Of a stretch of 64,000 nt of DNA, positions 9,473 to 48,800 are shown piece after piece (within the stretch, counting starts at the first letter, position 1; every line of letters begins with the position of its first letter). The position numbers and the translations under genes were made by a program. Under the pieces are notes generated by a model, which was given only the letters and a program-made list of their open reading frames with translations, had not been told where the DNA came from and did no database searches. Source of the stretch: Spizellomyces punctatus DAOM BR117 (Eukaryota); the NCBI GenBank assembly GCA_000182565.2, contig KQ257468.1. The stretch is one strand, 5' to 3'.

Positions 9473-10270
9473 GATTACCGAGCGACCAAAAGGTTCAACA
9501 GATAGCGATTTTATGCAACAAATGGAATATCACTAAAAGATGAACGATAAACCATGTGGGGGGAAATGGAGGTTTCGGAGGTCTTTTTATGGTTTTCAAG
9601 TGCTTGTGACATAAAGTTTAAGATCGGCATGTGACTGATATTCTTCTTTAACCCTTGCCTTGATCCCCAACGCCCACGATGATATTCTTTTTGTCTCCAA
9701 CCGTGAGGCAATTTGCAGGAAATCAACCGTTGGAAAAACGCCCGTTGCTAAAGGCTGTCTACGTCCATTCGCTCAATTCATTCAATTCATCATCCATTGC
9801 CATGTGTGTGTGTCCATCTGCTCCGCTTCCGCTTTAAAAGCGTTATATTTCTGTCTTTGGTTGTTGCACTGATTGTTGCAAGTCATAATAAAAATATCAC
9901 ACTTGCCAAGAGTGTTCATGTGACATATTTCTCTCTCTCGGACTTCCGTTCGGAGAATGAATGTCCGACCATTAGTGACGTGTTTCTTTTGCATTGCCAT
10001 TCCCCCCCTTTCAACAATGGGATCTACTGAGCGGATTTCTCCTTTTTTGTGTTGTCTTTCAAGCGGGATGATTTGCCACTGTACGCTAGACCAAGTGGCA
10101 GGTTTACTCTGCTGGCTGGCACACTTTTGACACGAGAAGGCCATGAGTCTCTTCAGTCTTCAGATGCTGGCTACTCTGATTTGTATTGTTATGCCAAAAA
10201 GATATCCGATATAGATCTTGCAAGGACGCTAGCTCAGCGCCAGAAAAAAAGCAGCGGTCACAATCGTGAT

Positions 10271-10351
10271 TGCCAAGGCCGAGAATCGAACTCGGGTCGA
10301 CGCGGTTCTGTGTTTCCACAACGCGATGTACTACCACTATACTACCTTGGC
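10271..10351 (-). tRNA. tRNA-His(GTG) with 10-nt intron
   Basis: The reverse complement reads GCCAAGG TA GTATAGTGGTAGTAC A TCGCG TT GTG G [AAACACAGAA] C CGCGT CGAC CCGAG TTCGATT CTCGG CCTTGGC A. The 7-bp acceptor stem, D-loop TGG, TTCGA T-loop and intron at 37/38 are all present. Confidence 0.93.
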
Positions 10352-10429
10352 AGATGTTCTTTCAACGAGCAACTCGGTATGTCAAGATTGTCCAAGAGTT
10401 CCCTTCAAGCCTTACTAAATCGGTAAGAT

Positions 10430-11170
10430 GTAAACTGCGTAGAATATCCCTATATGTAAAACACTATATCCGTACAAGTAACCCATAATTTCCCAAGTAA
10501 ACCTCAACCTGCACCCAATCGCCTTCCTTGAATCAGTGCTGGTCGTAACTGGTGTTTCGGTTGATTGTCTCGTTGCTTGTAAAGCCTTGCCTGTCAGAGA
10601 TTCCTTGTGCAAGCTGTAAATGTTTAGACCATCGTTCCAATTGTCATATCCATAAAGCTAGCAACAGTTCTCTGGTAAGATGATCTTTCCAAGGCAGTCT
10701 CGCCCATGTTGGAGTAGATTCCTCCATTGGCATTATGGCTTGCTTTAGAATATTTACGGTTACATTGGGGGTTTACATCTTTGGGTCAGAAGCTGATCAC
10801 ACGTATTGATGATCAGATTTACCAAGTTGGGAACGCCGACTTTTGACAGCTGCAACGCAGAGGAAAGCCCCGGAATTCCTTGGCGCAATAATGCGGGGAA
10901 ATGACTTCTTATCTGCTCAGCAAAAGCGTCTGATGGAAAACACTGGCTAACGAGGAAAGATAAAAGGGCTGAATTGCCAAAGTCTTCTCGCTATCCACAT
11001 ACCTGCGTCTTCTATATCTTTTCATTCGGTCGTCAACTTTCCATGACAATCATCTCGTTCCAAATGAGATTGCAACTCTGCTCGTAGCTTGTTGTTCACC
11101 GCAGACCAGAACAGAAATAGCTTGGCTGAATCCAGTTTTAGTCGTTCAAAGTTTGGTAAGTTGAGCATCT
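10430..11170 (-). pseudogene. Possible decayed gene fragment(s)
   Basis: Protein-like stretches on the minus strand (e.g. LNLPNFERLKLDSAKLFLFWSAVNNKLRAEL) and one convincing intron-like GTATGT...pyrimidine-TAG segment (~11002-10947). In-frame stops are present and the frame is ambiguous. Confidence 0.3.
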
Positions 11171-11176
11171 TGCCGC

Positions 11177-12040
11177 TATCAGGTCCATGGCCGGAAGATT
11201 TTTGTTCTTTGGTCGATCCATGCCATAAAGGAACGCTTTGTGACTTTCTCTGAGTCCTTATCGAAATACTCGTCTTTAAGAACCAACTACCTCGCTCCGT
11301 TCTTAACCACGAATACTTTGACAAGGACTCCGAACGAGTGATCGATCGATCATTCCTGGCTTGGGGTCGAAAGGAAAGACAAGAACCCGCGGCTATGGAT
11401 TTACTACGAGAGTTCCTGCTGGTGGTCGTTTAGAACGTTCTGTTTCATCTTAGGATCTAACCCTCCTTTGCGTTTTCCGTCAACCATTAGGTCGTAATCC
11501 CATCGGTTAAGTAGGAGAGGTTAACCGTTCAGCCAACGACGGCTACATCAAACAGACCGGACACCGTATTCCGTTCCTGTTAGCTGTTCGTTGACAAAGT
11601 CGATCCAAAACCGTTGACAAAATTATGCTTGGTAGGTAAAGGTAACCATAGCTTCCGGTACCTACTCGTCCCAGTACGTTTACTGACAGTTTTCTTTTCG
11701 CTTGTCTTTTCTCTTGTTTGGCTCTTGCCCCTGAGTGTCCACGAAGGGAGCACCACTTATGGCCACTTATTTAATCGGTCCGCCTGAGCCACGACCACCA
11801 AATAACTCGACATAAGTAGGGCTCCCTTCATGTAAATTCAAGGGCAAGAGTCAAGGACGAGAGAAAGACGAACGAGACAGTAACCTGTCAATAAACGGCG
11901 ACGACATCAAACAGTGCAAACGACTTGCAGTGTACGGGTGGGACGACAACAACCATCAAGGAGTTTAATCCACGGTAAACAAATAACTCGACAAAAGTGG
12001 TGCTCTCTCCGTCATGCAAATACGACAGTCGACGTTTTGG
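11177..12040. repeat. Patchwork of imperfect inverted and direct repeats made of homologous coding-like fragments
   Basis: Arms 11177-11283 / 11299-11406 and ~11677-11772 / ~11800-11897, plus a third related copy at ~11980-12012. Confidence 0.8.
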
Positions 12041-12486
12041 GCACACCTACACGGTGGTATGAAGGGGTCCCAGCTTACAACTCCTATGGACTTATTCACC
12101 GAACAAGCTGAGCAGTGGTTTGATCTCAATTATACTTCCATATAATGTAAGTAATAAGAGACTGTATCTTCTGTATTCTTCGGGTCTCTTCTGTCAAGTG
12201 CGTTGCACGCATCGGTTCACACATGTGTAGCCAGCATTTGGTCGATACGGGCTGTGCTAATTCTGCCCAGCAATGTGTGTAATCAGCTTCTTCTTAAACA
12301 CTTGGCATATTGGACCAAATATCCGGACTGACTGGCCGTAACAAGTTTGTCCGCTGACTAAAAACAATATTGTACATTAAAGGGAAGGAACAAGCAACAT
12401 AGAACAATTCCCTTTCCCCTCTCGTTCCAATTATTAGTGCCTCGTACGTACAAGTTTATACTGCCCAATGAAGCCCCAACACCGTA

Positions 12487-15400
12487 TCACTGTTGCTTTT
12501 TCACTGCCGGGGGGCTAGCCGCACCACTGGCGGTACCCGTATTCCCACCAACGTTAGGGCCGTGCTGGTATGCGCCATGGTAACCATGAACAGGCATCAC
12601 GCCACCCGGTATGACATTCGCTGCTGGTGTGTCGCCATTCCCTCGTCGTTTTCCAACCCCATGGCCAATAGCAGAGTCCCTAGCGGCGGCGGCAGCAGCA
12701 GCAGCCGCCGCAGCCTTCTCCTTCTCTTCGCCTAGTTGTCGCATCCACATTATATAATAGGTCCCTTCTCCTTTGTCTTCCAAGGCTCCGTTAATAGCTC
12801 CCGCAGCGGCTTTCGCCGCCTGTCGCCTTACAGCTTCTGCTCCGCGCTCCAGTAGGTCGGTATGGGTACCCCGTTCAACGATCTGTCCGTCTTTTAAGAC
12901 CAGAATCAGATCTGCATCCACAATGGTGCTGAGTCGATGTGCAATGACCAGAGTTGTTCGATTTGTTGAAAGAGTGCGCAATGAATCCTGAATGAGTCTT
13001 TCTGTAGTGTTGTCCAGTGCTGACGTTGCCTCATCCAGTAAAATAATCGAAGGATTCTTCAAAATGGTTCGCGCGATTGCAATACGCTGCTTTTCCCCAC
13101 CACTGAGCCGCAAACCACGCTCACCAACCTTTGTCTCGTACCCTGAAAGGCAAAGGAACCAACAGACCATATTAGTACCTTTTTCCTGTCGTGATATATT
13201 AAGCTTGGATTTACCATCAGGAAACGACATAATCCGGTCATGAATCTGCGCCGCCTTTGCCGCCGCTACAACTTCCTCATCGGTAGCATTGATGTTTCCG
13301 TATCGTATATTGTATCGAACCGTGTCGTTGAAGAGCACCGTATCCTAAATCAGATCTCAATAAGGGGGAGGTCATGTACATAACTGTTGCTTGGGTTCGG
13401 TACCTGAGGGACAACTCCTATGTGACTTCGCAGGGACGCCTGTTTTACGTTACGAATATCTTGCCCGTCGACCTTAATGGATCCACTTTGCAGGTCATAA
13501 AATCGGAAGAGAAGCTGTGTGCCCAAATATCAACCGTCTGTTGCGTTGAAGTAATGAAAGGCGTGCTGAACCTACCCGGAAAATGGTACTCTTCCCACCC
13601 CCTGAAGGTCCCACAAGCGCGACAGTCTTTCCAGGTGGTGCCTCGAAAGACACGCTTTTTAGTGCCGGCTGTCGTGGATCATACGCAAAAGCAACGTCCT
13701 CTATTAAATTTAAATGGTTTAGAAAAAATTTAGAAAGAGCCCTAGCAGAACGCCCACAGCAAAATACATACCGAATACGATTTTCCCTCCTTGGCGGACT
13801 GCCAAGTCCCTGGCGTTTGGTGCATCTTTAATAGATTTACCCTCTTCAAATAAATCCAACATCTTCTCCATATCAATAAAGTTCTGTTGAATGACGCGGT
13901 AGTATGTACCAAACCTGCAACGCATGGTGGATTATTCCCCGTCCCTACATGCACTCTGTCAAACATCCACGTACCAGTTCAAAGGTTGGTATAGTTGCAG
14001 CAAGTAGGTCAAAAAGGCCACAAAGTCACCAACAGTCAATTGCCCATCCGCAACCCGCTTTCCGCAGAGTAATAGTCCCGTCAACAAGCCAAGAGTAATA
14101 ACCAAATTCTGCGCAGTGTTGAGGACATTCAGACTCGCGCTGCTTTTCCAGTCGGCCGCTTGAAAACGACGGATTGCCTCATCATACGCATTGACTTCCC
14201 AAGCCTCGTTGTTGTAGTACTTGACAGTTTCAAAGTTTAGCAGCGAATCGACAGCTTTGGCTCGGGAAGCACTATCAAGGTCATTCATCTCCCGACGGAA
14301 CTTGGTTCGCCATTCGGTAATCCATATAGTGCAGGCGATATACAGGACCATCGTCACAAAAACGATCATGGCGATTGCCCAGTCAAACGTGATCAGAAAG
14401 ACTATTACAGCAAGTCCAATGTCGACAAATACAGGTAGAATGTTAAATGCGAGGTAAGACAAGAGAGAACCGATAGATGACGTTCCGCGGTCCATGACTC
14501 GCAGTACCTCTCCTGTCTTGCGGTTTATATGGAATTGAAGGGACAGCGAATGAAGGTGCTCCAGCATTCGCACGGACACTTCCCGAGTAGTGTATTGTCC
14601 AACAGGAATCCAGAGGAAGTACTGTAGGGAGGAGAGTAAACCCACGCCACCTTGCAAAAACCGGAAGGCGGTATACAGAAGAATGGCACCCCAGCAAAAG
14701 TACGGACGCCGCTTGTTTGGATCAGTTTCCCCATTCGGCGTAAGGTCGTCAACGACTCGTTTATATTGCAGAGGCACCAGCACGTTAACGACTCGGCCCA
14801 GTGCGAGCAGAACGAAACAAAAAATCACCAGGAATTGCAAGTGCAAGGGTTTGGGCCAAAGGAAAGGCATTAACTTGCCAACCTTCCTCCAGGTGTCTTG
14901 CCAGGTTGAAGTACTCGCAGGTGTGTTTGTTGCCGGTACTGTCTGGACAGATTCGACATCGCTAGCGCGTTGATTAGGAGACATTCTGCCGACCAGGAGG
15001 GTGATAATAAGACCCAATAGCAACGCGAAGCGCATGACGAAAATGATGAAATATGTTATGTCTAGAGTTGCGTCAAGCATGGTCACTTCTATTGTGGAAA
15101 TACACCAATTAGTCGACCGTACACATCTTCAGCATGTTACTTCGTCCATACCATCTAGCGGATGAGTCATAGCGACAATCCACTGGTAAAGCTGGACAGT
15201 CTCCACGATAAAGGCCAGTATCCAAAATTGTTTGACAGGCATCGGCACACGATCTCTCGGCATTTCATGCCACTCGTTTCTGTCCAGCGTCGCTGCAAAG
15301 AACACAAATGTTGACGCTATCAGCCAAGCAAACGAAGCCAGGACATCGGCGACAGTGCGCGCGGACAAATCTTGAATGATGGTGGTGGGCACTTCCGGAT

Positions 15401-27300: not shown

Positions 27301-30300
27301 TCGATGTGAATCTTTGTGATGTTCATATCCTGGTTTGTTTTCGGTTTTACCAAAAAGCATTAGCAGACGCGTTTAGAAACCAGTTAAACAAGACCGTGCA
27401 CCGGCGTCTGTTTTTCACTTTTTGGCGCACCGCGGTTCAACGACGGGTACAGATAGGCATTAACGNNNNNNNNNNNNNNNNNNNNNNNNNNNNNNNNNNN
27501 NNNNNNNNNNNNNNNNNNNNNNNNNNNNNNNNNNNNNNNNNNNNNNNNNNNNNNNNNNNNNNNNNGGTGTGGTCGTTGGTGGTGCGGTCCCGAAAATTGC
27601 AACAGAAGGCAAGTATGGATTGACGTGTTTCTTGTGGTTGGATGCTAAATGTGGCGCGTCTAACTATAGGAGCTGAGTTTTCGTGAGCGGGTTTGTCATC
27701 GCATAGTTGCGGAAGCGTTTATGGAGTGGCGGGGTGTTTATATGGTAACTGATTATCTTGACGTGTACGTTTTGATGGTGTGCTAAAACGACCATGTGCA
27801 GAATATGGTTTCTCAACGTTGGTGTCGACGAAAAGTCCTTTCGAAATGCTGGACAGTGTGGCAGTACACCTGTTGGAACCGGGCTCGTGATCGGCTTGCA
27901 ATGCGGTTGTACCATCAGAGGGTGTATCGTCTTGCTTTTCGTCGTTGGCTGTGGAAGTCGTGGGGGGAACTTGTTCCGGATGTGTTACAGTGAGTGTGGA
28001 TGGTGTTTGTCGTGTGCTATATCGTTTTTGTTGAAAGTTTTGCCATTTTTGGTAGGTGGGTTGTGCAAGTTGGAAATGTGGGGAGTGGGATCCGGATTTC
28101 GGTGCATGCAATGTTTATGTCCCATTTTGTTCGAGTTCAGGTTGGATGATTTGTGTGTGCGTGTTTTGAGTATTATCCACATGATATTGATATGTGTTGT
28201 TTTTTTTTTTTTTTTGCAAGATTCCTCGAAACTTGGTTGCCTACCAAAAGCTCGACACGTACAGTCGGATCCTCGCGACAACCACGGTACATGCCCCGCT
28301 TGACGGTCCGATTAGCATGCCGTCGACCCAAAGCAACCCGAACCTATCATCAGAAACACCCGCTCTCCACACACTGGTCCAAACCCGACGAAAACAATAC
28401 GAAACAGCTCAATCCACGCATACCACTACAGTTCTCACCCGATATTTCACACGCTGGCATGCCCAATTGTGTCGTCAGACCCTCCACACCCACATGCTCG
28501 ACACGTTCACATTCGTCCACCGTACACGGATAGCAAGACGGTATACAATGTACTGGCGACGAGCGGTGTGTACTGTTCACGAGCAATTGAACCACGCGGA
28601 TATGATTTACGCGTGGAATTTATTGAATCGCGTGTGTGGGGCGTGGAAGATGCGTGTGCTGGCACGATTGGAACAGGGTGTTGATGCCGGTGGGGTGTAC
28701 CGAATGGGATTGGTAAAGAGGGCATGGACACGTTGGAAGGTTGCACTTGAGAAACGACGTCAAGTGAGGCGGGAAAAGGAGGTGGAGGTTTTGGCGGGGC
28801 GGGTTTATCGTCGCAAGGTGCTTGAGCGGGCGTTTAGGGGTTTGCTATCTACAAGTAGAGACAAGAGGGGATTATTGAACGCAGCTGAGATGAAATGGGA
28901 TGAATATTGTCTTGAACGGAGGTTCCGGGTTTGGCGTGCCAAGACCCTGATGCGATCCATCCAGCGTCGAAATTTAGAGTACGCCATGACACGGTGGAGA
29001 ATACTTGGATTACGGACCTTGTTTAAAACTTGGTATCGATCCAGTAACCATTATGGCCTTGCACGCCAATTTGGGATTTACCGACATCAAAAGGTTTTGG
29101 TACGTGGATTCCAGCAATGGCGAAAACGGGTCAAGAGGAAACGGGGGTACAAGTGTAAGATTGTTGCTGTAAAGAGGTTGATGCGGCTTATGCTTTTGGC
29201 GCGGTGTAAGAGGATTTTACAAGGTTTCTTTATTTGAATTGCATTGTTTATTTCGTTCATGAACATGTATTGATTATTTTTTTTGTGTGTTTTTTTTAGC
29301 TTGGCATCTATACGCACACGAAAAACGCAGTCTCCAAACCCTTCAAACCACCTTCTCTAGTACAACACACCAAAAGTATCTCGTCCACGCCTTTCAAACA
29401 TGGCATCAAAACACGCTTGTCCGTGTACACCAACGTGTTGTACAACAGCGAGTATTGGGACGATTGTGGAGACAATGGCGATGGGGTGTTGTTTCTCGTT
29501 GTGTATGGTACCGTTTTGTTTCTTGATTTTGTAAATTGGTTATTGATGGTGGGATATTCATTTAGAATACGCGACAAGAGTTGTTTGAATTATTCATGAC
29601 AAATCGGCGTGAACGGGGTACGAGGTTTTTATTTGGGGTTTGGAAAGGGCGGATCAAGAGTATCGAATTGGAGAGGGCGTTGAGTGTGGTATTGTCTTTA
29701 TGTTTTTTGCGTACATGAACATTTTTTTGTGGGGCCATTGATTGATTTTGGGGGGTTTTTTTTGGTTTAGGTGATTTCAGACACGAGACGCAGGACTTGT
29801 AACCGATTATTTAGCGTTTGGAAAATAAAGTGGATACGCGTCGAAGGTAAAACACATCTCATTATCCTACCAAAACTTTTAATCTCACTCAAAGTTCTCG
29901 TAGAGGGGTATCAAGTTGCAGACCACCTAAACGCCATCACCAAGCTCCGTCGTGCATTCATCATATGGAAACGGCAATGGAGGATGAAGGAGTTGGAAGG
30001 GGTGTACCGGGTTGTACGGAAAGTAAGTGAGGAGGGGTTGGTGAGGAGGGTTTGGGTGGGGTGGATAGGCAAGATGCGATTACGACGACAAGTACGACAA
30101 GAACAAGAACGACAACGACGAAAAGAACAACGAAAAGATTCAATGGAACACATTCAAAAAACCAACAAAAAAACCCTTCAAAAATACTTGCATAAATGGA
30201 TGAAAGCGACACAAGGCGCTCGATTCGATACGGCTCGAAAACTCGTATTTGCTAAAACGTGGGCAGACAAAAAGTTGGTGGGAAATGTTCTAAGTGCATG

Positions 30301-36886: not shown

Positions 36887-36921
<35 letters not shown>

Positions 36922-37008
36922 ATGATCGATTTGAAATAAAACAAGAGAGAGTGACTATGAGGGAATGAAATCTACATGTAATATTCTTATTCTTTCTTTG
37001 TAATCATT

Positions 37009-37061
<53 letters not shown>

Positions 37062-37150
37062 TGAGAATGTGTGCAAAGTGTAAATATGTAATCTCTTCTC
37101 TCTCTCTCTCTAACATTATATATGAGAGTGATATTCCCTCTTCTTCTTCT

Positions 37151-37185
<35 letters not shown>
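36860..37185. repeat. Microsatellite cluster (GA)n, (CT)n(GT)n, (CTT)n(CT)n in a divergent promoter
   Basis: Direct reading at ~36889-36917, 37008-37055 and 37138-37183. Confidence 0.92.
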
Positions 37186-37186
<1 letters not shown>

Positions 37187-37359: not shown

Positions 37360-39622
37360 ATGACTGTACAAGTAGACACATTTCCCCCTACAGTCAAGGC
37401 TGGAGGCATTGATAATGCTGCTATAGTCCGTGTTCCAGAGTCTGACGAGTATTCGTATCTCACAAACAGTGACGTGCATCCAGAACCAGCAATGCAGGGT
37501 TTGATTAGTTTGGTTCTAGAACAAGGAGGAAAAGTAACGCTCAGAGGGCCTATCGGTGAGAAGAGTATTGTGGAATTGGATAGTGGAAAAGAGTTTGTCT
37601 ATGGAATAGTTGCAAAACAGTACAAGGTGTTTGACGACGAACAAGATTTTGATGGATGTTGGAAGGGATCGCTTCAGTTTTCCAAATTTAGGTGAGTGTT
37701 AGCGTTAGGGTTAGGGTTAGGTTAGGATTAGGTTTCGGGTTAGGTTTAGAGTTAGCGTTCGGGCTTTAGGGTTAGGTTAGGGTCATGGTTGGATTCGGGT
37801 TTGGGATGGGACATGACTCGCTGGCGCTCGTCATATGTCGCTGCGCGTCAACGGTCTTGGATTTGGGGTTAGGGACATGACTCGCTGACGCTTGTCATGT
37901 AGCTACGCGAGGAACCGGGCAATGCAACTGTCGTTGCGCGTGAAATGCTTTGGATGTGGGGCAAGGCCATGACTCGCGGTCGCTCGTCATGACGCTCGTC
38001 ATATCGCTCGCGTCACGTAGCTATGGCGTGTGCCTGCCGGGGGCTGCCGAGGGCATTCGTTGTGATGAGAGGGTGCCTCTGTGCAACTCACTGCCGTTCG
38101 TTGCACTTTTGTTGCACACACGCACTCACAACCACTCTCTCGCAGATGGGCGCTAAAGTCACTCGAACCCGCAACAGAGGAGGAATTTGAAAAGGCACAA
38201 GAGCAAGTGGCCCCGGTCCCCGACAAGGCGGACGGCGAGCAGCTCTACAACAAGGGTCTCGCCGCCATCAAGGCGGGCAATCACGAGGAAGCCATCTCCA
38301 TCTTGACTCTGGCCTTGACAACGTGCGAAATTGATGAGGAGGCAGAGGACGACGACAATGACGATCCCCATGCTTCCCTCCGCTTGCAAATTCTGACTGC
38401 CCGTGCTCAAGCCTCCAACGCCCTCGGTGCGTGGCGTGCCGCCGTTCGTGACGGTGAGCTCGTCGAGCGCATCTACGGTCGCCCTGTTGACGCCCTCAAC
38501 AGCCTCAAACCCGCCGATGCCGGTGTCTACTTTCATTCCATCCTCGCCTCGGCAAAGGCAAACGAGGCGCTCGGCAACCTCGTCGCCGCCGGATCAGGGT
38601 ACATGGCCATCATGATCCTCAACATGATCAAGGAGCAGGCTGCTGAATTGTCAACAGAGGGCCAAGAGGTCCCTGAACCCGTGCCTGCCGACGTGGCAGA
38701 CAGTCTCATCCAACAAGCCTCGGCTGCCCTCGAGAAACTCGAGCAAGGCCCAAACACCACCACAATCTTCACACTCAAAATATCCCTATTGGGCATCGAA
38801 CCCCCTGTTTGGCGAACCATTAAAGTCACCGCCAACACGACCCTCGGTGAGCTGCGCGAGTACATTATCATGGCCTTTGGCTGGTGTGGCACGCCCAATG
38901 TGCACGAGTTTGAAATCTATGATCACGGTGTCGTCCGCTTCACCACTATCCCTGACGACTTTGTCATTCCCGACGATCAAGACGACGAATACGATGAGCG
39001 CCACGAAATTTGTGAAGACGAAGAGGCCACCACGGTCGGTTTGGCCGTGTCGCAGGTTGGCGACACCTTTACCTTTATTTACGAAAAGGGCGACTGGGTC
39101 CACCAAATTGTCGTGGAGGAGGTGTCGGAACAAGTGTTGCCAGATGCTTGTTGCGGCCATGATGAGGAGGGAGACCACGAGCACAACCACCAACCCGAAT
39201 TCCCCAAAATCATTGCCGGCGCCCGTGCCTGTCCCCCCGACTCTGTCGGCGGCCCGGCCGGTTACAAGGAGTTTTTGCTGGCCGTTAATGGCACCCCTTC
39301 TGAAAAGTTTGCAACGCGCCTCGATGCTCTCAACTTTGCCGCCGAAAACGTGGGACTTTCCAACAGTGCCCTCGACTCTTGGGGCGGCGCTACCAAGCGC
39401 CCCATTGAAGATATGCTCGCTGGCTTAACCTTGGAGGACGACGAAGAAGAGAACGCTACCGACGACACACCCAAGGATGTCAACAAGGGTGGATGGGACC
39501 CTGAAGCGTTCCAGTTGGAGGAAGTAGGCAAAGCCCTGGGCGCCATTGCAGCCATGATGGAGCAAGGGGATGATGACGACGAGTGGGAGGATGAAGAGGA
39601 CGATGAAGAGGAGGATATCTAG
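37360..39622 (+). CDS. TPR-like plus plasmid pRiA4b ORF-3-like (MM3350-like) domain protein with acidic tail; exons 37360-37691 and 38146-39622
   Basis: Splice AG|GTGAGT...CGCAG|ATGG keeps frame. TPR-like LYNKGLAAIKAGNHEEAISILTLAL. pRiA4b-type LKISLLGIEPPVWRTIKV...AFGW...HEF, DWVHQIVVE, GARACPPDSVGG, WDPEAF. Confidence 0.78.
37698..37783 (+). repeat. Degenerate interstitial telomeric repeat (TTAGGG-like) inside an intron
   Basis: GTTAGCGTTAGGGTTAGGGTTAGGTTAGGATTAGG...TTTAGGGTTAGGTTAGGG. Confidence 0.85.
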
Positions 39623-40091: not shown

Positions 40092-43000
40092 ATGTCCAGT
40101 ATTCAACTCCCCTCTCAACAAGTCACCACTCTCATCCAATCCTTTATCCAGTCCCCCAAAAGCACTCCAATCGCTCCCCTCCTAACACACCCAACCGTCC
40201 CCGACGCACTCATCACGATTCTAACCCCTCTCTTGCAATCCCATTTAGCAGCCGACCAGATCCGTGCTGTGGAAGCCATAACAGAGGTATTACGACATGC
40301 ACAAGATGACATGTTCAGTGTGCTCTGTCGGTTGGCGTTTCAAAAGCTGGCGTTCATGGATATCCAAGATGGAGGGTCGGTGTCGTTGGCGGGGTACACC
40401 CACTGGCTCCGTATAGTAGAAGACATGATCATATCCCAAACACCTATGCAAGGAATGGTATGCGGGTTCCTCATGTTGAATTACCTTGCACGGTATGCAG
40501 CCATGCCAGACAAGAATCCGCGGGCATCCAAAACGCTTGCACCAGTGGAATTACGATTGGTGCAGCGCATTGCGGAGGGGAACAAGACGGTTTTGTTGTG
40601 TCCTATGGGAATGATTGGGGCCCATGTTTTTGCCATGTTTTGTCAGGATGCGCGGCCGGTGGGGAATTGGGGACCTGTGGATAATGTTCAGCAGGTGTGT
40701 TGTGTTTTTACATTGTGTTGGTTGTCCAAGAATGGGCACATGTGTGGTAGAGTATTCACTCTAGTGATTTTTCAAAATAGTTTTTTAATCTCTTTTTCAA
40801 TGTGGGGACGCTACCTCTTCCTCCGCCAAGCAGCGATCCCATTGTGGTCTTGGATGAGGAATCCGTTCGCGAGTGGAGGGAAACACTGTTATCGTACAGC
40901 ATATCGGACATTGAGGGAAAAGTATACTTTACGCCGTCGTGTTTGGCGCGGGATGTGCTGTTTACCGATTTGGTGTTTACAAACCGGACGAGAATCCAAC
41001 TACGGTATGAGAACGGTCAAGCGTTTTTTGAAAAGACGTGTACATCAAGTACCGAACATCCTATCCATGACCATTATGACTGGCTCTGTACCTTGTCGAG
41101 ACGACTTGTATTGAGTGATGATGCGCGGGATGCGTTTGCGGGGCGGTTGGCCATGTACTGTGCGATCCTCCAAGATGCCTTTATCCCATACCTCTACCCT
41201 ACTTGCTGTAAACCAAATGTCATAACGCGGACGGGTGTACACCGATACGCATGTGATCCCGGGAACCCCAATATCAAATCTCGTGTACACGATCTGGCCA
41301 TGCAAGAGTTTTCGAGTGTGATGGATACTTTTTCCCAAGGGTGTGGACCTCTTGTTCAAACGCTTCGTGCATACGTCCGTGCGACTCGACCGCATCAGGT
41401 ATGGAGCTCGTGTACGCAGACAACGTGGAAATGCCTTGGAAAACAGTTTAGAGAATGGAAGGGGGCGCCAAGCGAGTGTCCGCTTGTTGTTGCCTATAAC
41501 GAGACTACCGCGATGGGTACCACGGATGGGCCGTATGCGATTCCGTGGCATGTGTATTTCCTGAACGCCGGTATTGGGTCACTTGATGCCCAAATGTTTG
41601 TCACGTTGTGCAAGGACGAGATCCGGGCGTTGCGTCTCCTCGAAGCATTGCAAGTTCTCTGTGAGCGCGACAAGATACATGTGGACGCTGCAGAACAAAT
41701 GATGCAACTGATTCCCAAACAACACTCATCACCTTTTGACACTGACAAACAGGACATTATACATGTGGCCACGACCATGATGACGAAACTATTGGACACG
41801 CATGCAGACCGATTCCGCCATCTCGCACCCTACTGGAAACCCACCAACACCCTTCCCACACGTAAACGCAAACGAGGTATTCCAGATGACGGTTCAAAGG
41901 CACCCATTAAAGGCAACCCTTTCAGCACGAGTGGAATCCTATCCACGCCTCCCAAGGACCCATCCATCCGAACCAAACTCTTGACCACAGCGGTGCAAGT
42001 CTGGACCCAAGCCGTACATACCATGACACCAGAATCCATTACCTACTACCTCACACCGCTCTGTAGTGGGCGGTACCCAGGCAAAGAAAAGTACATGCTC
42101 GACCTTGTACTAGTGAAATTCATTGAAACGCATCCAATCCACGCGCCCACCATCCTTCGTTTACTATTATCCCAGCTGAAACCGGATACATACCATCGTC
42201 ACGAGTCACCGTTTTATGCCTTGGTGGAAGGACTCCAAACCATGGATGATCAAATCCGTATCGTTATATTAAAAGGATTTGCAACTGTTATTGACCATTG
42301 GACACGGTTTTGGATAGATTGTTTGAACGTGGTTTCAAAGCGGGTCAAAAACAGTGTATGGGAATGGGTCATGGTCCAAGTGGACTATCAACTTGGGATT
42401 CAAAAAGGAGAGACGAGGATGGATGCTGTGGGATTGGTCAAGAGAACGTGTGCTGCTGGCTATAGTGGGTTATTACCGTTTTTGCTTGGGAATCAACAAG
42501 GGCTTTCCAAAAGGGTTTTGGTTGATGGAATGGATGAGGTCGTTCTTGGAGTCTTTGGAGGAAAGTGCTTAAAGGATTCTCTCGAGTTTTTGGTAAAGGT
42601 GCTTTCGGCGGATGGGACTGTGAATGGAGAGGAGAGCATGAAGGTTCTTGAGAGGGTATGTATACCATCTCGGATCTTTGGAAACGAATGTCTAAAAAAC
42701 GAACCCAAATACTGATGATGCTGTTTGTACTAGTTGTTTCAAATATTGGAAACAAAAAAATCTGGGGAATGGTTTGAAGAGTACTGGGTTGAACCCATCC
42801 TAGAGGCAAGTATTTTCATATCACTTTTTTTACATCAGTCCTAGCACATGCTAAATCTCAACGATACAGAGCATCCTATCAAGTCCGTACACTCAATCCA
42901 CAGGCCACCTCCTCGCATTCCAGCTTTTGCGACACCATCCTCGCCTCTTCATACCCCACACACCCCAAACCGGCCTCGCGAAATGGGTGACAACACTCGA

Positions 43001-44042
43001 CACATACAATGATCCAGAACCCGTACTACATATATGGCATGAAGCCTGGGAGACCTGTCCAATCGAATGGATGGAATCCGTTATAAGTGTCTTGCACCTC
43101 ACATCAGGACCTCTCAAAAACGGCCTAGAAATCATGGTACTCGATTACATCAACACGGACTCACGACTCTTGACTCGCATCATACCCAAAATGGTTCAAG
43201 ATCCACCCGTATTCCAAACTCTCTTTTGTCACCTCGTGCAACATCATCCCCGACAAACCATTTCCTGTATCGAGGCGATCATGACCCATTCTGAGCATAT
43301 CATGACGTTATTGGGATACGCATTCGAGGATGTACGGTCCTATATCGTTCATTCTGAAATCATCATGCAAGGACTCGTGGATTTAGTACATACCCCAACC
43401 GTCCCAAAAACCTTGCTCAGTTTCTTGACCCGCTTGTATGAGGACAGTATCCCCGATTTTCATTGGCGGTTATGGAGGGGTACGGTATGGTCCATCCGAC
43501 TCCCCGAATGGCAAGACTTTATCAAACGTCTCGTACGAAGCGACCATGAACCCCTTGTAAAAGAAATCGTGTTTGACCTACTAGGTGAATTAGAATCCAA
43601 CAACCCAACACCAACAACTCAAGAAAGCATGTTACGAATTCTTTTTAGTGTGTCAAACACAACACCCCTCTACGACCCTCTTTTCTGTTCATTTGCAAAA
43701 CGATGGATAAAACGCGGTGAACCCTTTTTAAACTTTATATCCCAATTTCATGTACGCCTTGAACCTGAGATGTTATCCCATCTTTTTTCGGATATTTCGA
43801 GTGGACGTGCCAAGGTCCTGTTTAGGCTCTTGACATCCCATCAACACGTTCAAGAGATTTGTCGGCGTGTTGAGAGGATTGTACTTGGTTGTGTGGATCC
43901 GGGGTGTGCGAGTGAGTATCGGGAGGTTCTCAAATTGGTGGTTGGGGAGGTTGGGATTGGGTTTGTGCGTAGAGTTGTTGAGGGGTGTGATGCGAGGGTT
44001 TACATGGTTTTGAATGACTTGCAATTTTGGGATGTAACCTAA
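40092..44042 (+). CDS. Large hypothetical alpha-helical protein, multi-exon
   Basis: Long ORFs 39969-41114, 40802-42715 and 42927-44042 are linked by short introns, one apparently with a GC donor at ~42806. No family recognised. Confidence 0.6.
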
Positions 44043-44275
44043 TGGGATGTGATGAACGAGTTTTTGCTCCGTTGTGTGTGTCTCTGGATGCAAAAAGTCA
44101 ATGATACAGAGAGCAATGACTGGACATTGTGGTTGATTCTAGTAGCATCCATGTGGAAAACATTTACCCATCAAAAACCTTTTTGAAAAAACTAGCATTT
44201 TTTGTTCACTACATTTGGTATCAGAGCTTTACACAGCATGTCATCACAACCGAGAAACGGACCCCTTCCAATATT

Positions 44276-45090
44276 CTAATAAACATACAAAACCTTGACA
44301 ACCCTCTCCAAAGGCTCAACACAAACAAAACAAACATTCTGCACATGCGTGGACTCAAATAACGCACCCCCCGTATTCTCAATCCCCAAAACAGCATAAA
44401 CACTCGATCGAACCACTAGACCTTCACCCGATTTCCGAACCGCAATACAAGATTTATATAGTTCTTTAACGACATTCAAATACGGCTCTAGGGTCTCCTC
44501 AAATTGATTCAATGGACCCCCAATCACCAGTAATTTGAACACCCGTAACAAAAATTCCGATCGCTCAGATGGTGTCCACAAATCATTTGTGTCGTCTGAT
44601 AGGATTGTATGGAGGGTTGTTGTGAGGTGCGTGTCGTCGAGGGTTTGGACGAGTGTACCAGAGGCATGTGTGAGGGATCCTAAAAAAAGGAAATGACAAT
44701 GAGAAAATAATGATATAGAAACATAAATAATACACCACGTACGATTCATCCTAATCCGAGAAAAAATATCCAGAGTCGTTAACGTACACGGCACAACTTG
44801 ACTCGTCACAGAATGTACACTCCCAATTCCCTACGCCCCCAAAAAAGAAAACCAATCACTAACCAGCCCCAATTACAATCAAAAAAAAAAAAATCATAAA
44901 AACTCACAGGAATAATCCCACTATTCAACAAATCAACCAAAAACACCCCAATATCATGTGGTGGCAAGTATCTATCATAACTTGTTTTCAAAACCTGGAG
45001 ATTTAGACCCCATTTTTGTAAAAGGGGTGAGAGAGATGTTTTTGTTGGGGGGGTGAATGTGTAGGTCGGGGTTAATGTTGGGGTGAGCAT
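44276..45090 (-). CDS. CFAP300: Cilia- and flagella-associated protein 300 (C11orf70), multi-exon
   Basis: LLQKWGL, VPCTLTTLDIFSRI, ERSEFLLRVFKLLVIGGPLNQFEETLEPYLNVVKELYK, HVQNVCFVCVEPLERVVKVLY. Confidence 0.82.
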
Positions 45091-45880: not shown

Positions 45881-48800
45881 TCATCGCATACCTCTAGCCC
45901 CACGAGGACCAGTGGGCACTCTAGCACCACCAGTGGAACTCCCACTCCCATGCGCACCCGCAAACCCAGCCAACTGAAGAAATTGTGGAAAGTGCGCCAG
46001 TTTGGTTTTGGCGTAATCGGGGAGGTGCTTATCGATTTGGAACCTGACAATCAAAAGTTTTAACAAGGATTCAAAAAGCATTGCATCACATTCAATAATA
46101 AAAAAATACCTTTTCGTTCCATCTTGCTCGGTTCTATCCGCTTCGGCCCACTCTAGCGTTTGGTCACGCGGGTCAACGACCATTCGTACACCGTCTCCAA
46201 ACAACATGACAAATTTCCCTTCGGTGGTTTTCATGCACCAGCCCACATTCGCCAGAAACTGGAAATTCAACTCTCCACTTGCTCCAGAGGTGGATGCTCC
46301 GGATGATATCTTTGCCTCACCAGCGGCATGAGTCGCGTTCGTAGGTGCCTTTCTGATCGCAAACGTGTCACTGGCGGTCGTGCGTACAGGTGCCTGTGTT
46401 GACCGACCCACTGTGGATGTTGCGGCAGACATGATCCCTCCGCGATTCTGATGACTGCGTTGCCCGCTGGGTTTGTAGGTATCCTGCCGCGCCGTTTGTC
46501 CAACCTTTTCCCACATTCGGCTTTGTACAGCACCGCTTTGTACAGGCCTGGCATCATACTCCCCTTGAAGAGGCCAGTTATCGCTAGCACCAGCATTGAT
46601 GCCCTGTCGAGGGGTATTGCCATTTCTGGTGCTGGCCACCGCCCCGCTACTGCCACTCCTCGTATATGTCGACATGGCACTAGGATGAAACGAGTCTGCC
46701 TCCCGCGCATCACCGTCCCTCCCTCTCGACACTCCCGACACAATCCTGCAGTGAGAACTCTTTAGAATGACTGGATACCGTGTTGTAGAATCCAGCTTGC
46801 CGCTTCTCTCAACGTCCATGCATTGTTTCAGGCACTCTTGGACGTGGCGAACCACGGGTGCAACATGGGAAGGTATATCCAACGTCTCACATGTGCTGGT
46901 TGCCACAGAAGGACTTGGTAACCGGATCTGGTGGACTTCAGCGCTGTCCCTGTCCTCACTATCCCCTCTGGAAAGCCGAACTTCCATCATTCCGCGCGAC
47001 ACTGAATAATGCGCACGGGTGCCGTTGTAAAAAACCATTTCAAAGTCTGCAAGCGGAGCATTTTCCATTAATATGCATTTCGCTTGCGGTGAATAAAATA
47101 TAATCTAGGATGCAACCTGTGTGAATACGATGCGGTGTAAGAAACGGAGGAAGTGTCCCTACCTTTGGGGTCTTGGATCGTACAAGCTCTACGAAACGGC
47201 TGCCGTAGCGGTACTTTTTAACGTACCCTGGCGGCAGAGTCGCGCGCTCAAATGTCTGCACCGGTCGAGCAGAGGAATTCAATGGATCGACTGATCGGTC
47301 AAACAAAGCAATCTTGTAGTCAAGGAATGGTGTGAGCAAACTTTATGGAATCCAATTGATAATGACGTAAAGGCTCTAACCTCGTTACTGTCGCTACTAA
47401 TAAGCATTAGGTACTCTTCCCCGATAAAGTCAAGAAGCAATTCGCCTGTCTCAAGGATGCTAACATTCCCATGCTTGGTCTTTTGTCGGAGTGGTTTCAA
47501 TCTCACCGTTGAAAAGGCAGGTAGTTCGGGCACGTCACTTTTGTAATATCGCATATTGTGTGGTTCTGAACTGACAGTGCGAGATCCATCTGAGGATCTG
47601 TGCCTCGGAGAATTGCCAGATTCTCCTGCTTCACCAATAAATGGGCTGGATGTAGATGATCCACGATAGCCATCCCTCCCATTCACCGCATTCCCCGCAT
47701 TCTCTTTCAGTCGCCGGTGATCTACCAGGTCTTCCTGCTCAGCGCGTGTCGGGGCGCGTACCCGACCACTTTTGGATCTACTATCTCCTTCAGATGGTGT
47801 ATGTCGCTGGTTCTCGGTAAAACCGACGCGTTCTGTCAGGACGTCAGATGATCCCGGTGCCGCTCCAGAACTGTTTGTAGCAGTCGGCTGTCGATTAACC
47901 TCTCGTAATGGAGATCTTCTTCTTTGGGTACTGTCAAAGACTGGAGAAAGCGGTCGTAGAGACGATACTGGCAGAGTTGGGTTAAAGAATGGATGGCTCA
48001 AAACTTTTGTGAGTGCCAGGCGCCTTTTTGGATCCTACAACAATGTGGGTAAGAAAGCTGCCGTCTGGCCCAAAAGGGGAGGACACAATACGTAGTCAAC
48101 ACACCTTTTGCAGCAATCGATGCACTAAGTCCTTTGCATGTGCTGAGAGACTGTCAGGGAGACTGTAGTCGACACGACTCACTCTGTCGAGCGTATTCTT
48201 CACAGCTTTGCTCTAGACGGCCATCTGAGTTACACGATACGTGCATAATTGGGACCTAAACCTCCTACATACCTCGAATGGGGGCGTTCCGGTCAATATG
48301 GTGACTATCATGCATCCCAGAGACCACACATCGGACGCGAGCCCATATGGTTGTCGAGATACGATCTCACTAAAAGAAAACATAAGTCGGTCATAGGCGG
48401 AAATATTTTGCCAGTTACGAAAAAACGTACGGTGATATGTAATTTGGTGTTCCACACATGGTTTTCTGTTCCCCTTCTGGATCATTCAGTTTAACTGCCA
48501 ATCCAAAATCTGCAATTTTCTGAGAATCCGGGGACAACATGGTGTTAGATGCAGTGAATTCAGTGCTAGTGTACGAGACACACTTACCACATCGAAATTG
48601 TCTGTCAGTAACAGATTTGACAGCTTGAGGTCACGGTGAATAATGCCGTTTGCGTGTAGGTATAACAGGCCACGGACAATCTGGGCCATCACGCCGCGCG
48701 CCTCTGGCTCCGTCAAAGGGCACTTTCTCTGATGAATGTACCGGTACAGCTCTCCGTTTTGACACAGTTCCATCACAAGATATACGTAAGATTGATCTTC

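Follow-up and report, generated by a model that had tools for sequence, protein, structure and literature searches.

The locus described here is very probably a decayed nest of LTR retrotransposons beside a tRNA-Pro gene. An element of Ty3/gypsy type on the minus strand would have lost ~1,400 interior codons, leaving part of its gag (11283 to 10950) and the C-terminus of its integrase (10745 to 10506), while a second gag fragment (11299-11412), stemming from a long-diverged lineage, would abut the first one head-to-head, giving rise to the inverted repeat IR-A. The right-hand side would be an array of ~180-nt non-coding units, one of which became inverted to yield a second inverted repeat, IR-B. 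The element family presumably inserted close to the tRNA gene, in the manner of Ty3 and the Dictyostelium elements, with two head-to-head insertions followed by symmetric loss of the centre, and the locus would have no selected function. The original prediction had seen in the same stretch a candidate invader-memory small-RNA locus, a reading that we do not favour; the main value of our analysis lies in this correction, as ordinary retrotransposon debris beside a tRNA gene would explain what appeared to be a new kind of locus. The features under discussion are the following, with positions referring to the window, i.e. the whole 64-kb stretch of DNA that was analysed:

10270-10352, minus strand: tRNA-Pro gene (anticodon TGG), found by ARAGORN and by the Rfam tRNA model (55.8 bits, E 1.2e-10)
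10406-11160, minus strand: low-level transcript over gag and the integrase relic (run X7, depth 1.9 to 9.4, first mate on the minus strand)
10506-10745, minus strand: relic, interrupted by two in-frame stops, of the C-terminal integrase region in a Ty3/gypsy-type polyprotein (tblastn)
10788-10824, no strand: left arm of an outer inverted repeat, 29 of 37 positions identical to its partner at 12255-12291
10950-11283, minus strand: gag pseudogene, left arm of IR-A and its continuation (family-profile positions ~110-198)
11184-11399, no strand: IR-A, a quasi-palindrome in which 15 nt (11284-11298) separate the two head-to-head gag fragments
11299-11412, plus strand: second gag fragment, right arm of IR-A (profile positions 109-148)
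11463-12175, plus strand: low-level polyadenylated transcript with no long ORF (run X7 reads; 5' end undefined, library 3'-biased)
11515-11555, plus strand: unit u1, partial direct copy of the tail of IR-B arm B (30 of 41 positions identical to 11874-11914; four-unit alignment)
11666-11904, no strand: IR-B, a non-coding inverted repeat inside the plus-strand transcript (arm A 11666-11780, arm B 11793-11904)
11970-12021, plus strand: unit C, which repeats part of arm B's head in direct orientation 181 nt downstream (alignment with 11789-11837: 40 of 52 columns identical)

Identity of the donor family

A word-indexed search of the two ORFs in the arms of IR-A against longer proteins returned 40 candidates, none of them at E <= 10, and only after this search had come up empty was the family found by an exhaustive profile search. 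Run against 1.84 billion representative proteins, the profile of the two arm ORFs gave seven matches at E <= 0.001, five of which have the motif L(K/R)DEYF..D..(R/K)VTK(R/K).F..W(I/V)E...ELLREF. The match to P0003, a 3516-aa repeat protein, was dismissed as spurious, as was that to P0005, another repeat protein, which covers profile positions 6-18 only, where the right-arm frame runs antisense to the left arm. For P0006 we obtained 75 relatives at E <= 0.01 among 987 candidates, the majority with PF13352 (DUF4100); P0191 and P0199 additionally have RVT_1, RNase H, Integrase_H2C2 and rve in Ty3/gypsy order. P0001 has 231 relatives at E <= 0.001, those with names all being 'predicted proteins' that a single moss has in multiple copies. 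The named relatives of the family as a whole belong to the moss Physcomitrium patens and to liverworts (Riccia spp.). In the literature, we found no paper linking DUF4100 with a retrotransposon.

Two further profiles, of 8 segments and of 74 sequences, drew exclusively on outside proteins. The one of 8 segments matched two of the 2754 ORFs in the window (E 1e-10 and, for the right-arm gag, 7e-8; next best E 2.9), and the 74-sequence profile matched three of the 119 ORFs at the locus, namely 11182-11286 on the minus strand (E 3.8e-13), the right-arm gag (E 1.1e-9) and, through residues 88-134, 11025-11429 on the minus strand (E 3.6e-4), which represents the continuation of the left arm. In tblastn, residues 34-82 and 79-137 of P0001 matched the left gag in two different frames (E 3.6e-10), residues 166-239 of P0130 extended the match to 10950, and P0195 matched the right arm with 51% identity over 37 aa; the tblastn matches of this family at the locus are the only element matches in the 64-kb window. 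The left gag pseudogene is interrupted by at least two frameshifts plus stops, and the right-arm frame is open for 59 codons (11254-11433), with no start codon. The best identity of the locus to any relative is ~62% over 26-27 aa. The label Gag reflects only the N-terminal position in the polyproteins and sub-threshold Pfam matches, such as that of Retrotrans_gag in P0001 (19.9 bits vs a cut-off of 24.1).

The integrase relic corresponds to residues 1633-1712 of P0191 (37.5% identical over 80 aa in tblastn, with E 3.4e-10 for a search of the window and 8.8e-12 for one of the locus), a segment that follows the rve core, which ends at residue 1575. The DNA of one related metagenome locus, L004, aligns with 10570-10741 (64% over 175 nt). 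Read along the minus strand, gag is followed by the integrase C-terminus, an order colinear with one internally deleted element; this brings the locus close to a simple rearranged transposon pseudogene, the very outcome that the original prediction had set against its own reading. The Gag and integrase matches thus support the predicted derivation from a transposon, and identify a DUF4100-bearing Ty3/gypsy-type LTR retrotransposon as the donor family. The idea that pieces of several family members had been stitched together is right in that at least two members are represented, but overstated, as only three coding-derived pieces are detectable, all within ~0.9 kb and all from one element family. 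A piRNA cluster or a graveyard of endogenous viral elements would contain many families over tens of kilobases; with one family and three coding pieces in a locus of ~2 kb, the proposed cluster-like architecture is not supported.

Reverse transcriptase, RNase H, protease and the rve core gave no tblastn match at E <= 0.05 in the window or at the locus. When 10353-10520 was compared with 11290-12480 for a pair of LTRs, the best score on either strand was 12 (shuffled sequences: mean 12.2, maximum 18), and neither a primer-binding site nor a target-site duplication was demonstrable at the locus. Purine-rich runs, e.g. 11853-11868 in arm B, and a TGGTGC... word in units A and C are present, none of them rightly placed relative to an LTR.

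The tRNA gene that had been noticed ~0.8 kb from 11177 proved to be tRNA-Pro(TGG), at 10270-10352 on the minus strand. The 64 kb contain no other tRNA gene, and 153 nt separate this one from the integrase relic. In run X1, contigs extend from the gene into other flanks, suggesting that further copies exist elsewhere. Among the Rfam matches in 9500-12600 (E <= 5), the tRNA was the only credible one; MIR4221 (18 bits, cut-off 100) and SCARNA6 (17 bits, cut-off 68) were dismissed. None of the four related metagenome loci, on contigs of merely 1.7 to 8 kb, carries a tRNA gene. The arrangement at this one locus hints at tRNA-directed integration in this lineage.

Composition, reading frames and the two inverted repeats

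As had been stated, 11177-12120 has no long ORF: its longest stop-to-stop frame measures 135 aa, and the first ATG of this frame lies only within the last 48 codons. The earlier hand count of 13 CpG against 4 GpC in 11401-11580 was exact on recount. This segment ranks among the top 5 of 1059 windows of 180 nt by CpG minus GpC, and just 2 of 621 windows reach the value for the whole 944 nt, +25; by GpC depletion alone the stretch is less exceptional, as 26 of 621 windows are equally low.

Imperfect inverted repeats had been predicted at two places, and both are there. In IR-A, 70 of 103 columns are identical between 11184-11283 and 11399-11299, with 5 gap columns, and the predicted RNA fold of -85.6 kcal/mol (z -6.2) was equalled in 0 of 200 shuffles. 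The arms descend from coding sequence: 15 of the 22 mismatches between them fall on codon position 3 (P 0.0009 per phase, ~0.003 allowing for three phases and ~0.01 allowing for four repeats), and the codon differences comprise 11 synonymous and 7 non-synonymous ones. They differ at 22 of 69 sites, compared with 24 to 33 of 69 when either arm is set against four environmental relatives. Being as distant from each other as from the environmental relatives, the two gag arms would represent two old lineages of one element family, an interpretation that these sequence comparisons support and that agrees with the earlier claim of at least two diverged members in opposite orientation. The starts of both arms lie no more than a few codons apart on the profile (109-110) and fall in the best-conserved motif of Gag, which explains why they are still alike enough to form a hairpin; the 'hairpin' of IR-A is a by-product of past protein conservation.

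The shared start, just 15 nt apart, could also be ascribed to an in-situ inverted duplication of one truncated gag by fold-back repair, followed by neutral decay, with IR-B as a second event. For the gag start this is the simpler account, and the mismatches of IR-B are evenly spread, as neutral decay predicts. Yet neutral decay of one copy predicts neither mismatches concentrated in one codon phase, many of them synonymous, nor arms as far apart as unrelated environmental copies. We therefore regard this explanation of the locus as unlikely, bearing in mind that the phase bias with which it is at odds comprises 22 mismatches only; for IR-B, in-situ inverted duplication stands as part of the best explanation.

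IR-B, with 87 of 117 columns identical between 11666-11780 and 11904-11793, is predicted to fold at -110.1 kcal/mol on the plus strand (z -11.0; equalled in 0 of 200 shuffles) and at -121.8 kcal/mol on the minus strand (z -11.9). Three pairs of long inverted repeats occur in the 64 kb, and IR-B is the sole one that is not simple sequence, the others being (AG)n/(CT)n. IR-B and its sister units of ~180 nt have no coding signal; unit C also resembles arm A in inverted orientation (26 of 32 positions identical). A MITE or foldback element was considered for IR-B and rejected, as no duplicated word flanks 11666-11904 and no other copy exists in the 64 kb. IR-B has no match to the family proteins at the locus, the right-hand 0.9 kb as a whole (11433-12346) has no demonstrable link to the element, and none of the four related loci from the metagenome scan is similar to 11433-12450. 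The units on this side may be further debris of the element, from an LTR or leader, which is a guess on our part.

The proposal of protein-like fragments on both strands, several of them mutually homologous, is accordingly correct for the head-to-head pair EYFDKDSE..., which is truly coding-derived. It fails for IR-B and the direct repeats (11789-11837 with 11970-12021, 11515-11555 with 11874-11914), where mismatches are even over the codon positions and most frames contain stops, and for the minus-strand peptides RFWIDF... and LLLNRW..., which are without a match in Pfam and, among the 119 locus ORFs, without one to the family profile (E 20 and 12); their frames, of 24 and 38 codons, are no longer than chance frames. 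A Pfam scan of ten locus frames gave no match over the cut-offs, and none of the quoted peptides could be assigned to a viral or other Pfam family. A minus-strand gene joining the two peptides was also rejected: the LLLNRW frame opens right after a stop, with no AG acceptor inside its start, and 11312-12066 has no minus-strand reads.

The outer inverted repeat scores 21 in local alignment, compared to a maximum of 15 in 1500 pairs of shuffled tiles. One large ancient palindrome, spanning 10788-12291 and centred at 11291, was considered as well; global alignment of its two sides scores 116 vs 95 +/- 6 in shuffles, and it is not supported, since the score comes from nothing but IR-A and the outer block of 34 nt. 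The locus shows no sign of the assembly chimera that had been named as a possible artefact, in that a contig of run X1, which may be the source sample and not independent, covers 10873-12343 with 0 differences at a depth of 3.5 (neighbours 2.0 to 3.0), passing unbroken over IR-B at single-copy-like depth.

Transcripts and the small-RNA reading

The RNA evidence comes from run X7, a 3'-biased library with the same species label, whereas runs X8 and X9 yielded nothing; the sense direction in X7 was calibrated on an ABC-transporter gene, which has a poly(T) loose end at 12346 and reads on the minus strand. The exon of this gene belongs to the ABC_membrane family. The strand-specific check that had been suggested revealed two divergent low-level transcripts. 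In successive 151-nt bins, the plus-strand transcript has sense depths of 4.8, 1.9, 7.4, 22.4 and 10, and it ends in a poly(A) loose end at 12175, seen in 9 reads at a place where the genome is not A-rich; it has stops in all three frames. A candidate intron lies at 11632-11689. Both arm bins of IR-B contain plus-strand reads (1.9 and 7.4), which are 60 nt long, so that no single record spans both. The IR-A region, 11161-11462, has a depth of 0 to 0.5 on either strand in this 3'-biased library.

The two polyadenylated RNAs are most likely non-coding. That they serve small proteins, with the repeats being incidental, seems highly improbable. Candidates would be a mini-Gag, encoded by the 48-codon ATG frame 11168-11025 on the minus strand, and the 43-codon frame 12014-12145 on the plus strand; both lie within transcribed stretches, and the former corresponds to positions 152-198 of the gag profile. 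However, the gag reading is broken by frameshifts and stops on either side of the 48-codon frame, and both frames have no Pfam match and are short enough to occur by chance.

A hairpin small-RNA locus, in which IR-B, together with IR-A in a longer RNA, would be diced to siRNAs that silence related gypsy elements, has some features in its favour. IR-B lies within a polyadenylated transcript, both repeats fold far more strongly than their shuffled counterparts, and IR-A contains retrotransposon gag in both orientations, so that any dsRNA arising from it would be gag-directed. Nevertheless, we consider such a locus quite improbable. IR-A is nearly devoid of read cover, the arms are just 68 to 74% identical, with indels, and in neither hairpin does pairing favour the transcribed strand, IR-B folding better on the other one. 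Moreover, a hand count on the arm alignment yields 5 transitions that keep G-U pairs on the plus strand vs 7 that break them; with no excess of the former, there is no sign of selection for pairing, and IR-B itself has no detectable relation to the element. In a variant that we hold to be very doubtful, the nest would be dead but co-opted, with the 240-nt IR-B hairpin and a read-through gag-gag palindrome feeding Dicer to silence living gypsy kin. If true, a zoosporic fungus, from one of the early-diverging fungal lineages, would have a 'memory' locus of the hairpin type. A retrotransposon nest in decay is the reading that we retain.

Comparison with known systems

The closest resemblance is to Ty3/gypsy (Metaviridae) elements bearing DUF4100 (PF13352) in the region on the Gag side, with which the locus shares the N-terminal Gag motif (E 4e-13 and 1e-9), the C-terminus of integrase (37.5% over 80 aa) and, on the minus strand, the colinear order of the two. 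In contrast to these elements, it consists of ~0.7 kb of coding debris, without LTRs, protease, RT, RNase H or integrase core, and whereas their named hosts are bryophytes, the host here resembles a flagellated opisthokont. The window encodes a Plk4 polo-box domain, which fits such an organism.

In yeast, remains of Ty elements and solo LTRs cluster upstream of tRNA genes. In compact genomes, Ty3-like elements are among the retrotransposons that target tRNA genes, with DGLT-A, Skipper and TRE as the Dictyostelium examples (PMC5006619). The locus resembles these clusters in having mixed-orientation debris within ~150 nt of a tRNA gene in a gene-dense genome, but differs in that targeting is deduced from one locus, at which integration distance, target-site duplication and LTRs are no longer readable.

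Inverted-repeat siRNA loci derived from transposons occur in plants, as hpRNA genes in Drosophila and as milRNA-like precursors in fungi. As in these, a long imperfect inverted repeat is found here within a polyadenylated transcript, and a second one consists of transposon coding sequence; similarity between the arms is only 68-74%, though, and the sequence does not indicate upkeep of pairing. Transcribed remnants with a strong hairpin nevertheless offer a cheap test case for transposon-derived siRNAs in such fungi.

Finally, Tcn1-like chromoviruses are a gypsy clade common to fungi and to mosses and other non-seed plants (PMC2864245), and provide a precedent for a gypsy lineage with its nearest named kin in mosses and other members in fungi. 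P0191 and P0199 differ from them in having no chromodomain at E <= 0.01, and, the window containing no RT from which to build a tree, we do not claim membership. Provided that the window does come from a chytrid-like organism, a family combining a DUF4100-bearing Gag with a Ty3/gypsy Pol, whose named kin are only in bryophytes, has left remains in such a genome too, which adds one case to the distribution of gypsy lineages over fungi and mosses outlined in the same source (PMC2864245).

Donor family and element pieces

Ten reading frames of the locus had no match in Pfam, nor did a word-indexed protein search return any match to the frames of IR-A, the inverted repeat of two head-to-head fragments with 15 nt between its arms. 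With the two arm frames as a profile, an exhaustive search of 1.84 billion representative proteins yielded seven at E <= 0.001, five of which (P0001, P0002, P0004, P0006 and P0007) have one motif in common with the IR-A arms; the other two, P0003 and P0005, were repeat proteins and were discarded as family members. The P0001 family comprises 231 members at E <= 0.001, the named ones all being predicted proteins of Physcomitrium patens. For P0006, 75 relatives were found at E <= 0.01; most of them bear DUF4100 and measure 800-900 aa. Two polyproteins from Riccia (1805 and 1861 aa) also carry, in this order, RVT_1, two RNase H models, Integrase_H2C2 and rve, arranged as in Ty3/gypsy elements. 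The shared motif lies near the N-terminus of the family proteins and is covered in P0001 by a weak, sub-threshold match to the Pfam model Retrotrans_gag (19.9 bits; cut-off 24.1), and we use the label Gag for these two reasons. On sequence grounds, the donor of the IR-A arms is the putative Gag of a Ty3/gypsy-type element with DUF4100 relatives. The original prediction was right in proposing a transposon origin, and the profile searches now name the donor family that it had left unnamed.

An eight-segment profile built from five outside proteins only matched two of the 2754 window frames of at least 12 aa, namely the left arm (E 1e-10) and the right arm (E 7e-8), the next best reaching E 2.9. 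With a 74-sequence profile, three of the 119 locus frames matched, whereas two minus-strand peptides quoted in the original prediction fell outside the family (E 12 and 20) and had no Pfam family.

Element pieces and flanking genes
10270-10352 (-), tRNA-Pro(TGG)
10745-10506 (-), integrase-end relic, tblastn against P0191 (a family-search protein) residues 1633-1712, E 3.4e-10
11184-11283 (-), left arm, positions 110-135 of the 74-sequence profile, E 3.8e-13
11299-11412 (+), right arm, positions 109-148 of the same profile, E 1.1e-9
Minus-strand frame of 135 aa, last 47 residues, positions 152-198 of the same profile, E 3.6e-4
12487-13344 (-), last long frame of the ABC-transporter gene

Beyond the left arm, gag could be followed by tblastn on the minus strand as far as ~10950, across stops and two changes of frame. 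The integrase-end relic, which contains two stops, is 37.5% identical to P0191 over an 80-aa stretch directly past the integrase core, and an 8-kb metagenome contig aligns to it in DNA at 64% over 175 nt. As gag and the integrase end follow each other on the same strand, they represent one minus-strand element that lacks roughly 1,400 codons between them and ends 153 nt from the tRNA-Pro gene. No other element matches were found by tblastn in the 64-kb window.

Genomic setting

The locus occupies a 2.1-kb gap between tRNA-Pro(TGG), the sole tRNA gene of the 64-kb window, and the 3' end of the ABC-transporter gene. Yeast is an example of retrotransposon remains gathered at tRNA genes. Contigs assembled from read run X1 lead into the tRNA-Pro gene (10271-10351) from other flanks, so that more copies of this gene seem to exist in other contexts. 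Other window frames encode MCM, Sfi1, PAF acetylhydrolase, MFS and Plk4 polo-box-2 domains, the last at 45884-47104 (-) with E 1.7e-20. Plk4 suits a centriole-building opisthokont, and this frame points to a flagellated host of that kind, which makes the chytrid background of the original prediction plausible. A long frame at 38069-39619 (+) contains a PRiA4_ORF3-like domain (PF07929, E 5e-28), an odd neighbour in a eukaryotic window, the family name being derived from a plasmid protein. The window also contains an assembly gap (100 N, 27466-27565) and (AG)n and (CT)n microsatellites opposed as inverted repeats (36890-37186). The CpG and GpC counts originally taken as a foreign composition were exact and are unusual within the window; its lowest GpC, with observed/expected values of 0.47-0.56 below those of the locus, lies at 43000-44500.

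Repeats and their origin

The predicted inverted repeats are real. In IR-A, 11184-11283 pairs with 11399-11299 (70 identical and 5 gap columns among 103), and 11170-11410 folds at -85.6 kcal/mol (shuffles -59.6 +/- 4.2). In the second repeat, IR-B, 11666-11780 pairs with 11904-11793 (87 of 117 columns), and 11660-11910 folds at -110.1 kcal/mol (shuffles -60.3 +/- 4.5), the minus strand even more strongly at -121.8 kcal/mol. In a tile-by-tile comparison of 10400-12480, both exceeded the highest of 1500 shuffled scores (15), as did three weaker pairs.

Weaker repeat pairs
11789-11837 with 11970-12021, direct
11515-11555 with 11874-11914, direct
10788-10824 with 12291-12255, inverted, 29/37 identical

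Since the direct pairs are spaced by 181 and 359 nt, the right half can be divided into about four units of 180 nt (u1, inverted A, B and C), of which no further copy was found within the 64-kb window. A word beginning TGGTGCTC is common to units A (read inverted) and C (11741-11757 and 11994-12012); it resembles the tRNA-primer binding site of an LTR element, and neither an LTR end nor a matching tRNA was found.

Coding constraint was assessed for each ungapped block of four repeats by asking whether mismatches cluster in a single codon phase. Of the 22 mismatches in the IR-A core (69 nt), 15 occupy third positions of the frame ...EYFDKDSE... (P 0.0009 for one phase, ~0.003 for three phases, ~0.01 for four repeats); the codon differences are synonymous in 11 cases and non-synonymous in 7, and there are no stops. 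IR-B (6/5/5), the B-C repeat (3/2/2) and the u1-B repeat (5/3/3) were flat, most frames containing stops. The coding signature is thus confined to the head-to-head pair, and the protein-like homologous fragments of the original prediction stand there and fall in the other three repeats.

Both IR-A arms start at most a few codons from position 109-110 of the profile, which, together with their close spacing, would suit an in-situ fold-back duplication of one piece. We consider this origin unlikely, because the arms differ from each other at 22 of 69 sites, almost as much as each differs from four environmental relatives (24-33 of 69), and because neutral decay of a local copy should spread changes evenly, while third-position bias is seen in all of these comparisons. 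Few as these sites are, they favour two lineages: two long-separated members of the element family would have inserted head-to-head, and the resulting quasi-palindrome would then have lost its centre. Under either origin, IR-A owes its existence to the fact that both arms span the most conserved motif of Gag.

At E <= 0.05, searches with up to 113 proteins of the family gave for 11433-12346 a single marginal match, with stops, at 12223-12438 (E 0.035); Rfam held no fitting family for the right half, and no LTR pair was detectable at the locus. By hand count, 5 mismatches of IR-B keep G-U pairs on the transcribed strand and 7 break them, so that no preference for G-U pairs is seen. Judged by these mismatches, IR-B is a DNA-level inverted repeat apparently under neutral decay; it may come from an LTR or leader of the element or from an unrelated local duplication.

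Transcription and comparison with known systems

RNA-seq run X7, which is labelled as the same species (~6% read; 669 reads of 60 nt mapped), is strongly 3'-biased: the ABC gene is covered in its last ~450 nt only, at depths of 76 and 41 that drop below 2 further on. The sense direction follows from first mates on the minus strand together with a poly(T) loose end at 12346. Plus-strand depth across 11463-12217 was 4.8, 1.9, 7.4, 22.4 and 10, with a poly(A) loose end in 9 reads at 12175, a site whose genomic sequence is not A-rich; minus-strand depth over 10406-11160 was 1.9 to 9.4. Depth on two strands and the loose ends indicate a divergent pair of polyadenylated RNAs at low level. Of these, the plus-strand RNA includes IR-B and has stops in every frame. 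The IR-A interval (11161-11462) reached a depth of 0 to 0.5 on both strands in this 3'-biased library. No splice joints appeared at the reporting threshold, including at a candidate 58-nt intron (11632-11689, plus strand, GTAGGT to TACTGACAG) whose bin shows a dip in depth. The poly(A) sites of the non-coding RNA (12175, plus) and the ABC-transporter mRNA (12346, minus) converge at a distance of 170 nt. The outer inverted pair encloses the entire locus, its left arm within the transcribed relic and its right arm between these two sites; it could delimit an old rearrangement of larger extent, or be due to chance.

An X1 contig covers 10873-12343 with 0 differences and at a depth like that of its neighbours, which speaks against a chimeric assembly and against copies of near-identical sequence at other sites; X1 may itself be the source sample.

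The original observation was largely right, and the special stitched architecture it described is explained as ordinary decay: the locus is a decaying retrotransposon nest beside a tRNA gene, and a candidate small-RNA function is, from sequence, a minority reading. Compared to hairpin-siRNA loci, it has the fold and perhaps part of the transcription, but no sequence sign of maintained pairing, and with one family and its small size it does not resemble a piRNA-cluster-like graveyard. With Ty3/gypsy elements it shares Gag and the integrase end, but is a remnant only, with no RT, RNase H, protease or LTRs found and no clear primer-binding site. A gypsy clade is common to fungi and mosses according to PMC2864245, so that relatives named from bryophytes would be no surprise for a fungal relic; we do not claim membership in this clade, as no chromodomain was seen in P0191 or in P0199, another family-search protein, and no RT is left at the locus. 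The locus comes closest to the well-known grouping of retrotransposon remnants around tRNA genes of compact genomes (PMC5006619).
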